Assembly (NCBI RefSeq): GCF_024223415.1
Contig: NZ_CP100500.1
DNA: 64,000 bases
Reading direction: 5' to 3' (one strand)
From: Escherichia coli
GTDB taxonomy: Bacteria; Pseudomonadota; Gammaproteobacteria; Enterobacterales; Enterobacteriaceae
Shown here piece by piece: positions 17,701-20,700 of this stretch. Position 1 is the first letter of the stretch. Each line of letters starts with the position of its first letter. The position numbers were made by a program.

Positions 17701-20700
17701 CGGTTGGTTTACTGGAAGAGGCGTTGGTGGATGTGATTGCCGCCGACCCGATTCATCAGCGGATCTGTAAAGAGCTGGGTAAAAATCTGCCATTTACCCG
17801 TCTGGATGAACTGGCGCACAACGCGCTGGCGAAGGGGCTGATTGATAAAGATGAAGCCGCTATTCTGGTGAAAGCGGAAGAAAGCCGTCTGCGCAGTATT
17901 AACGTTGATGACTTTGATCCGGAAGAGCTGGCGACGAAGCCGGTAAAGTTGCCGGAGAAAGTGCGGAAAGTTGAAGCCGCGTAATTGAATAACGGAGCCG
18001 AAAGGCTCCGTTTCTTTATCCGCTAATTATTTAAAATTAAAGCCATCCGGATGGTTTTCCAGGCTGCCGGTCAACGCCGCGAACAGCACCGTTTTACCAT
18101 CAATCGAAAGCGCATCGTTCACATTCAGCCAGGTCAGTTTCTCTTGCGACGTTTTCTCATCAATAGTCGAGAACAGCCCCGTCATCTGATTAGATTTCTC
18201 GGACCACATCACAGCGATACGTTGCGAGCCACAGTCATGCGGTTTGCACGCGCTCATCACCTGATACGTCTCATCTCCCAACGTTACGGTTTGTGCGGGA
18301 GTATAAGTACCGCCTTTCATCACCCATGCAGGTAGCTTATGCCCTTGCACCATCTGATTAAACGCAGCTTTGGTGGTTTCGCCCTTTGCAAGGCTGCTAA
18401 TGGTTAAATCATCCTGCGCCATTGCACTGGTGGCGATGACCAGAGCGGCGACTGTCGTTATTGCCTTAAACATCATTCCTCCCGAGCTTATCCTGCCCAT
18501 GTTATTAACCTCCTAAAGCCTGGCGATAACACGATAATTTGCAAATCAGATATTTCCAATATCAGCATTTGTTATCAATTTATTCTGCGCTAAGGCAACT
18601 GCCTGATAAGGTGTTAAAGTTATAAAACCCTTCGCATAAAGGAGTTGTACACCGTGCCTGGTTTGAAGATTACGCTTTTGCAGCAACCACTGGTGTGGAT
18701 GGATGGCCCTGCCAACCTGCGTCATTTTGATCGTCAACTGGAAGGTATTACCGGGCGCGATGTGATCGTTCTACCGGAGATGTTTACCAGCGGCTTTGCC
18801 ATGGAAGCGGCTGCTTCGTCGCTAGCACAAGATGACGTAGTGAACTGGATGACAGCCAAAGCGCAGCAGTGCAATGCGCTGATTGCAGGCAGTGTTGCAT
18901 TACAAACGGAGTCTGGTTCGGTTAACCGCTTTTTGCTGGTTGAGCCGGGCGGCACGGTACATTTTTATGATAAGCGTCATCTGTTCCGCATGGCAGATGA
19001 GCATCTGCATTATAAAGCGGGCAATGCGCGAGAGATTGTGGAATGGCGCGGCTGGCGTATTTTGCCGTTGGTGTGCTACGACTTACGTTTTCCGGTGTGG
19101 TCGCGCAATCTCAACGATTATGACCTCGCCATCTACGTTGCCAACTGGCCTGCTCCGCGCTCTCTGCACTGGCAGGCATTGCTGACGGCCCGCGCGATTG
19201 AGAATCAGGCGTATGTGGCGGGATGCAATCGCGTCGGCAGCGATGGCAACGGCTGCCATTATCGCGGTGACAGCCGGGTGATTAATCCACAGGGCGAGAT
19301 TATCGCTACTGCCGACGCGCATCAGGCAACGCGCATTGATGCGGAGCTGTCGATGGCGGTGTTAAGGGAATATCGCGATAAGTTTCCGGCATGGCGGGAT
19401 GCGGATGAGTTTAGGTTGTAGTGAGTGGGTGTTGTGTTTAGGGCTGGGGAGAGTCGGGGAAGACTACGAAAGCCCGCTCTCCTGCGACCACTTTTATCAT
19501 AGGAGTGTGGAAGTGCTTTTCCATCAATCGCGATGACGTCTTTGTCATTTGATGAATGGCAGTCACGCATCCAGTTAATAAAGCACTCGTGAAATTTTGC
19601 AGGACTGATACAGGATACAACTCTGGCAATGGTATCGTGAACAGGGATACCATTTTCAAAATCACCATATTGTTTTAAAAAATCGAGATGTGTTTCCCCA
19701 AAATCCTCTATATCTTCCCAACCTTCTACACCAGAAATAACGGCACAAATAGTCAACAGAAGAATATCTGACAATTTATGTTCCACTTTCCAGGCTTGAC
19801 TGTAATCGGGAATAATAGAAATATGTTCCATCAATTTTTTAAGTTCCATTTTTTCTCCTTATTTATGTAAGGAGTATTTGATCATGTATAAGCAATAAAA
19901 AACAGCTTCAGGTAATGAGGAATATCTCAATTTTTAAACATAAAATGCGAATTATTTAGTATAAAAAGTGTACTTCTGATGATCTTTCCCTGGATTTACA
20001 TTAGGTTGGTTATTTTCCATACCCACAACTATATTTTCTCTCTGAATTTAATACGTGCAAGACAATCGCAGCACTCTAACTGACTTCGATGTGATTTGAT
20101 GTTCAGAAAAATCCCTCATTAGATTATTATCATGAAATACAGCCAATTATCTTTAGTTTTTATATTTCTCAATATATTCTTTTGAAAGGATTCGCGCCTT
20201 TTCAAACTCTTCAGGAGTTAATCTATTTTCCATCTTCAATTTATATTGAACACTTTTATCAAGTCCATGAGCGTATGCGGCACTGAACCAGGCATATGCC
20301 TTTTTATTATCGAGTGGTAACTCTTTCGTGCCTACGGAATAGATTAATGCAAGATTATGTTGTGCAACAGGATCACCATGTGTGGCTGACTTTCTTAACA
20401 GTTCTATTGCTTTATATTTATTTACAGTAATCCCACCCAGTCCTTCATAGTAAAAGATACTTAGTGCTGATTGTGCTTTTATGAAACCTTGACTTGCCGA
20501 TTTATCATACCAAAAGGCGGCTTTATTATAATCCTTTTTAATAATAACGCCTTCATAATAGAGTCGCCCTAAATGATACTGAGCAACCTTATCCCCTTGC
20601 TCCGCAGCGATACGATACCACTTATCTGCCAGATCTTTTTTATTAGTCTCATCATATAGTAAAGCAAGGTTAGTTTGAGCCGTAACTAATCCAGAATTTG

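Follow-up and report, generated by a model that had tools for sequence, protein, structure and literature searches.

An internally deleted and probably non-functional H-rpt element beside yafV, at the edge of a type VI secretion/Rhs island in Escherichia coli

The 64-kb stretch of Escherichia coli DNA analysed here (the window; all positions are counted on it) carries, next to the backbone gene yafV, a 538-bp remnant of the insertion sequence (IS) H-rpt (ISEc1, ISAs1 family). The remnant lies on the minus strand at 19455-19992; blastn against yhhI and ydcC shows that H-rpt nt 1-519 are fused in it to nt 1263-1291. It is very probable that this feature is a non-functional, internally deleted H-rpt at the distal edge of an Rhs element, where the aspV-yafV island of type VI secretion system 1 (T6SS-1) borders on yafV; this locus is the well-known aspV-yafV T6SS/Rhs island. 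Read along the plus strand, the gene order is fadE, ivy, yafV, the H-rpt remnant, a Sel1/TPR-repeat gene and the genes for an Rhs core protein, VgrG and Hcp; beyond Hcp follow a complete T6SS-1 cluster and then a region common to K-12 yafT, the tRNA-Asp gene aspV and dnaQ. An earlier note on this DNA had placed a truncated H-rpt (ISAs1) transposase at the distal end of the vgrG/Rhs/downstream-gene element of the island, and both the identification and the placement are borne out by the data below.

The length of the H-rpt unit was set at 1,291 bp by a blastn comparison of K-12 yhhI with ydcC, in agreement with the published length. The ends of the remnant were mapped by blastn and manual end alignment, since MAFFT put the gap in the wrong place, so that the right end went unseen. 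Two segments were obtained: positions 19992-19475 of the window correspond to H-rpt nt 1-519 (93.5% identity over 520 nt), and positions 19482-19456 to nt 1263-1289, a 27-nt match to the right end of the element. The two segments have 8 nt in common, and the difference between their offsets is 751 bp. In canonical H-rpt copies an 8-bp direct repeat, GGGGAGCG, is found at nt 512-519 and again at nt 1263-1270, flanking the 751 bp that are lost in the window, and its sole surviving copy, GGAGAGCG (19475-19482, minus strand), marks the deletion junction. Recombination or replication slippage between the two GGGGAGCG repeats deleted these 751 bp and spared the termini.

Indeed, both IS termini are retained. 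The left terminal inverted repeat, CAGGGAAAGATCAT (19979-19992, minus strand), is intact and identical to the canonical left repeat of yhhI and ydcC, and the homology between strain L73 and the window stops exactly behind it, at 19992|19993. The right terminal inverted repeat (19455-19469, minus strand) is recognisable but degenerate, with CGGGG-AAGACTACG versus the canonical CAGGGCAAGATTACG; this locus-specific variant is common to the window, strain EC01307 and K-12 yafF. Distal to the break, the last 28 nt of the H-rpt are kept at 19455-19482, comprising the last codons, the stop codon TAG and the right inverted repeat. The break is thus an internal deletion with both termini kept and not a terminal truncation. 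Lost in the deletion were codons 126-372, i.e. the whole DDE catalytic region. Alignment to the full-length H-rpt, named as a check in the earlier note, shows clear homology and puts the break at 19475-19482.

An open reading frame (ORF) at 19322-19849 on the minus strand starts within the remnant and codes for 175 aa. PF13808 (DDE_Tnp_1_assoc) covers its residues 8-94 (E=3e-32) and is the sole Pfam match; no DDE catalytic domain was found in the Pfam search of this 175-aa ORF, and therefore it is dead as a transposase. Residues 1-125 align without gaps to residues 1-125 of K-12 YhhI (94% identity, E=4e-88), and no homology was found for residues 126-175. The note had estimated that about 120 codons are kept; a partial N-terminus is indeed present, and the alignment with YhhI gives the exact count of 125. 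These retained codons (19475-19849, minus strand), which contain the N-terminal DDE_Tnp_1_assoc domain only, are exactly the interval labelled by RefSeq as 'ISAs1 family transposase; incomplete; missing C-terminus' in strains KV7, AR_0085 and L73. KV7 (NZ_LT795502) is 99.9% identical to the window across 37.5 kb, with 12 mismatches and two indels. The finding is hence real, ordinary and already catalogued, RefSeq flagging the ORF as a pseudogene.

The rest of the ORF is explained by the length of the deletion. Since 751 equals 3n+1, the native transposase stop TAG (19464-19466, minus strand) is now out of frame ((19849-19466) mod 3 = 2) and the ORF reads on into yafV; in the shifted frame no stop is reached until the right inverted repeat, the spacer of 33 nt and, in antisense, 100 nt of yafV have been read. 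In line with the note, which had described a loss of homology followed by an antisense run into the yafV 3' end, the tail formed by codons 126-175 and the stop (19322-19474, minus strand) overlaps the last 100 nt of yafV (19322-19421). This 50-residue tail is a frameshift read-through accident and not a gene. It is better not to count the 175-aa ORF among the genes, and it overlaps yafV in antisense only as a consequence of the frameshift.

A backbone spacer of 33 nt (19422-19454) separates the yafV stop from the end of the H-rpt and is conserved up to ~19450 in the window, EC01307, K-12, KKo003, O157:H7 and UTME-7. Comparison of these genomes shows that the border between the backbone and the variable region is the H-rpt right inverted repeat, at 19451-19455 and thus ~30-33 nt past the yafV stop. 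In EC01307 a full-length H-rpt pseudogene stands beside yafV, and its right end and spacer are those of the window; the yafV locus of EC01307 is homologous over 5,059 bp (96.7%) to K-12 RhsE, which occupies another site on the chromosome, and this homology ends no more than 2 bp from the right end of the H-rpt. In K-12, H-rpt nt ~1001-1291 are found at this junction as yafF, which shares the variant terminus and the TAG stop with the window, and because K-12 keeps this 3' part of the H-rpt, its homology to the window runs from the backbone through yafV up to exactly 19482. O157:H7 and UTME-7 diverge from the window after ~19450 and contain ~100-220 bp of unrelated sequence between the backbone and an element of the ISAs1 family, which is ISEc26 (ISAs1-like; locus positions 3086-4376, after yafV) in O157:H7 and a transposase pseudogene with a canonical H-rpt right end (locus positions 5022-6389, also after yafV) in UTME-7. 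It seems that nearly all E. coli have an ISAs1-family element beside yafV. As a side observation, the EC01307 region at yafV (6159-11216), which harbours an Rhs tip, ydcD and two H-rpt copies, is 96.7% identical to K-12 RhsE, so that the two loci have an entire Rhs distal module in common.

The truncation point had been proposed in the earlier note as the probable junction between island and backbone. This placement did not hold, since the H-rpt 3' end survives beyond the break; it was off by about 25 nt and wrong in kind, and the island border has to be moved to the H-rpt right inverted repeat. The accompanying statement that no tRNA-derived direct repeat is present here was correct: a search of both island ends for aspV repeats gave matches at chance level. 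No aspV-derived direct repeat was detected at 19300-20200, and the best match in the window, counted outside its two tRNA-Asp genes, is 13 nt long (at 15229, E=0.1). Between the two island ends the best direct repeat has 11 nt (E=0.3), again at chance level. The tRNA-Asp gene aspV itself (52018-52094, minus strand; tRNA call and RefSeq) lies at the opposite end of the island. No integrase is annotated beside it by RefSeq in the near-identical region of KV7; the aspV-proximal gene encodes a hypothetical protein in the region common to K-12 yafT. Thus, the locus resembles integrase-mediated tRNA-linked islands in having one border at aspV, but it differs from them in the lack of a tRNA-derived direct repeat and of an annotated integrase, and its aspV-proximal ~1 kb is common to K-12. 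In view of the missing aspV-derived and terminal repeats and the missing integrase annotation, it is not a classical tRNA-integrated island.

The deletion is widespread. In a set of 5,426 complete E. coli genomes, a 201-nt probe for the deletion junction was matched as one piece in 1,095 (~20%), and a probe for yafV with the undeleted H-rpt right end in about 1,875. The latter is a shifted probe which replaced EC01307 6100-6400, because with that interval the H-rpt part alone gave >80% coverage and yafV-linked copies could not be told from other H-rpt copies. The remaining genomes are arranged otherwise, for example with ISEc26. KKo003, 2017-02-2CC, SSGNw1 and CP131 have exactly this junction sequence, and in three of these four genomes the remnant was later cut to ~195 nt by other DNA. 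In all remnants examined, the ~30 nt beside the junction contain about 8 derived substitutions that occur in no intact copy, and the variant right inverted repeat and the yafV flank are shared as well. From the derived substitutions common to these remnants, the 751-bp deletion appears clearly as a single ancient event. In CP131_Sichuan and 21EVA, IS1 insertions go along with the loss of the whole T6SS/Rhs island, and only 99-303 nt of junction-proximal remnant are left between yafV and aspV.

The remnant of the window is not homogeneous. Compared with three intact copies, its unique differences amount to ~2% in H-rpt nt 1-440 and to 17.5% in nt 441-520 (Fisher p=4e-7), and the divergent block (nt 441-520) is common to other deletion-bearing remnants. 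From the contrast at nt 440 and the shared block we infer that the remnant is chimeric: ~19455-19553 would be old resident sequence and ~19586-19992 would stem from a canonical-type H-rpt, with an old recombination crossover presumably located at 19553-19586 (minus strand). Three further genomes differ in where they part from the window. In L73 the remnant and the yafV flank are 100% identical to the window, and an unrelated cassette starts from exactly 19993. THO-010 has the same Sel1 cassette, and its remnant and yafV flank differ from the window at 27 sites, every one of which lies right of 19972. The genome 23S01245-7 has a cassette of its own, with divergence from 19894 leftward. The Rhs-tip/Sel1 cassette of the window is present in only 35 of the 5,426 genomes.

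These mosaic patterns suggest that the remnant could serve as a passive homology arm for the replacement of Rhs-tip/immunity cassettes. Having no activity of its own, it would persist as a block of homology matching other genomic H-rpt copies, and homologous recombination would cross over repeatedly within it. With a second crossover, presumably in the conserved rhs core, the Rhs toxin-tip/immunity cassette left of the remnant would be replaced. The mosaic remnant would then be a small but concrete example of IS remnants as recombination anchors in the turnover of polymorphic-toxin cassettes. It is tempting to go further and to speculate that the remnant is maintained as a fixed right-hand landing pad for Rhs cassette exchange at T6SS-1, possibly together with an expressed 125-aa N-terminal DNA-binding fragment. 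We regard this as unlikely; if true, it would explain why an ISAs1-family element is found ~30 nt past yafV at every yafV-distal junction examined. A 94%-identical copy of window positions 19993-20217 (the spacer and the 3' end of the Sel1 gene) was noticed in the RhsE locus of LR-46 (3501-3726). It lies on the right-inverted-repeat side of an intact H-rpt, upstream of an Rhs gene and therefore on the opposite side of the IS as compared to the window, and is an orphan cassette fragment.

Different explanations can be considered for the break and for its distribution. According to the earlier view, the H-rpt is terminally truncated and the break shows where island and backbone were joined or parted. 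In line with this, the protein homology ends with codon 125, and the yafV stop is only 54 nt away. However, the 28 nt past the break are the H-rpt 3' end with its last codons, TAG and right inverted repeat, K-12 homology from yafV runs to exactly 19482, strains with a full-length H-rpt have the same yafV junction, and the homology of O157:H7 and UTME-7 ends at ~19450 and not at 19475-19482. This makes a terminal truncation extremely improbable. Only slightly more credible, and still highly improbable, is that different H-rpt variants lost the identical 751 bp at the 8-bp repeat on several independent occasions. Recurrent slippage is plausible at a perfect 8-bp direct repeat, remnants are up to 13% different over 180 nt, and the left part of the window remnant is nearer to intact copies than to other remnants. 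The high divergence is explained by later recombination, with the mosaic boundary at nt ~440, whereas the derived substitutions within 30 nt of the junction, found in all examined remnants and in no intact copy, and the variant right inverted repeat and yafV flank common to the remnants argue against recurrence. Thus, a single internal deletion in an H-rpt at this site is the preferred reading.

Several observations weigh against the view of the remnant as a mere non-functional IS. No target-site duplication was found, the flanks aatgtaaatc and actctcccca being unrelated, and for this reason an origin of the element by transposition cannot be shown. In terms of IS membership, the N-terminal domain and both inverted repeats are present, and the DDE domain and the target-site duplication are absent. 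The proposed role as a homology arm is derived from mosaic patterns in a handful of genomes. Further, codons 1-125 still form an open frame, and the H-rpt 5' untranslated region (19850-19978, minus strand) provides a good Shine-Dalgarno sequence (AGGAG) 5 nt before an intact ATG, so that a truncated 125-aa N-terminal protein may be expressed. Last but not least, the coding differences between remnant variants fall mostly on third codon positions (11 of 13 in the comparison with THO-010). Selection on the truncated ORF may have caused this bias, but import from intact copies accounts for it just as well.

Such observations could also be taken as signs of a domesticated gene, the putative DNA-binding domain of 125 aa being expressed and acting in trans, for example by regulating or inhibiting the intact H-rpt copies or genes nearby. 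Besides the intact start codon and Shine-Dalgarno sequence and the synonymous bias, it speaks for this explanation that the ORF is open in the window, L73, THO-010 and 23S01245-7, with RefSeq noting 'missing C-terminus' only, and that the exact 175-aa sequence, which is present in GenBank and UniRef, is called on 363 contigs. However, most deletion-bearing alleles (the class with 90-95% identity, about 750 genomes) are without the N-terminus, and two of three examined alleles of this class have an internal stop. In the resident block nearest to the junction, the comparison with KKo003 revealed three synonymous and four non-synonymous changes; the synonymous bias is accounted for by import from intact copies, and the C-terminal 50 residues are frameshift read-through. 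In a promoter and terminator scan of 19200-20300 the counts were not above those of shuffled sequences, and no Rfam match was obtained for 19000-20400 at E<=1. Domestication is therefore very unlikely, and we favour the non-functional H-rpt. A dN/dS ratio of ~0.1 between the remnant and intact copies was rejected as a sign of selection on the truncated ORF, because the left 440 nt are imported from intact-type copies and the resident block is too short.

A close relative of the remnant is K-12 yafF (b4503), an H-repeat-associated pseudogene beside yafV which shares with it the junction, the right inverted repeat variant, the TAG and the ~33-nt spacer. Both derive from the same ancestral H-rpt insertion. 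They differ in the part that is kept, which in K-12 comprises the 3' ~290 nt (H-rpt nt ~1001-1291) and in the window the 5' 519 nt plus the last 29 nt, and K-12 has lost the island including T6SS, Rhs and the H-rpt 5' part. Beyond this kind of housekeeping, namely that yafF is a sibling of the flagged pseudogene, the significance of the finding is slight. A literature search for yafF and RhsG yielded unrelated papers only, PMC3032704 alone being useful for the locus; it reports an Rhs locus in the b0215-b0221 interval of E. coli W (PMC3032704). The 3' end of K-12 yafT, ykfM and yafU (K-12 locus positions 1991-3098) have no detectable homologue within the 64-kb window, and these genes are thus not simple leftovers of the island variant described here.

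Intact H-rpt/ISEc1 copies, such as yhhI in RhsB and ydcC in RhsE, are similar to the remnant at both the DNA level (93.5% for nt 1-519) and the protein level (94% for residues 1-125), have the same left inverted repeat and are likewise situated at the distal end of an Rhs element. In contrast to them, the remnant lacks 751 bp including the DDE domain, has a 1-nt deletion in its right inverted repeat, and is frameshifted and, as proposed above, chimeric. Rhs elements were reportedly described by the Hill laboratory as composite units of a core ORF, a variable tip, a downstream ORF and an H-rpt. The window has the same layout, with vgrG, the Rhs core, a unique tip, a small downstream gene and the H-rpt, and nothing essential differs; its tip/Sel1 cassette is the rare variant mentioned above.

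In the window, VgrG, the Rhs protein, the Sel1 protein and the H-rpt follow one another in this order, all on the minus strand, as stated in the earlier note for a vgrG/PAAR-Rhs/immunity/H-rpt arrangement. The order was confirmed, but the designation PAAR is weak: the Rhs N-terminus contains a literal PAAR motif, and PF05488 gives only a partial match (E=0.039, 14.6 bits versus a cut-off of 27). VgrG (25612-27753, minus strand) was identified by annotation and domain search. The Rhs core protein with its unique C-terminal tip (21148-25536, minus strand) shows DUF6531, RHS repeats (PF05593 in 10 stretches) and the RHS core (PF03527). A DPxGL-type motif is visible in its translation (a boundary of the PxxxxDPxGL type) and is followed by the unique tip of ~210 aa (21148-21780), which is Gly/Ala-rich and hydrophobic and for which no Pfam family was found even at E<=10. 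The Sel1/TPR-repeat protein (20153-21103, minus strand; Pfam and RefSeq annotation) is encoded at the position expected for an Rhs immunity gene and co-occurs with the Rhs tip; from its position we regard it as a putative Rhs immunity protein. Together, tip and Sel1 gene form a rare predicted toxin/immunity pair without a Pfam match. The H-rpt left end is followed by a cassette-specific spacer (19993-20152) that extends to the Sel1 gene; in its place, L73 and 23S01245-7 have unrelated sequence.

On the other side of the remnant, the first backbone gene is yafV (18654-19421, plus strand), which encodes 2-oxoglutaramate amidase (PF00795; Pfam and RefSeq). Its stop is polymorphic (19416-19424): the window has TTG-TAG, corresponding to 255 aa by the RefSeq start, and EC01307, K-12 and others have TTG-(C/T)GG-TGA, corresponding to 256 aa. 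Within the T6SS-1 cluster, tssG (33695-34783) and a gene with a VasL domain (47097-48536) are frameshifted in KV7 according to RefSeq. The two indels between the window and KV7 total 23 nt, and at the tssG position the window contains an uninterrupted ORF of 362 aa. In view of this ORF and the indel differences, the T6SS may be intact in the window although it is annotated as broken in KV7.

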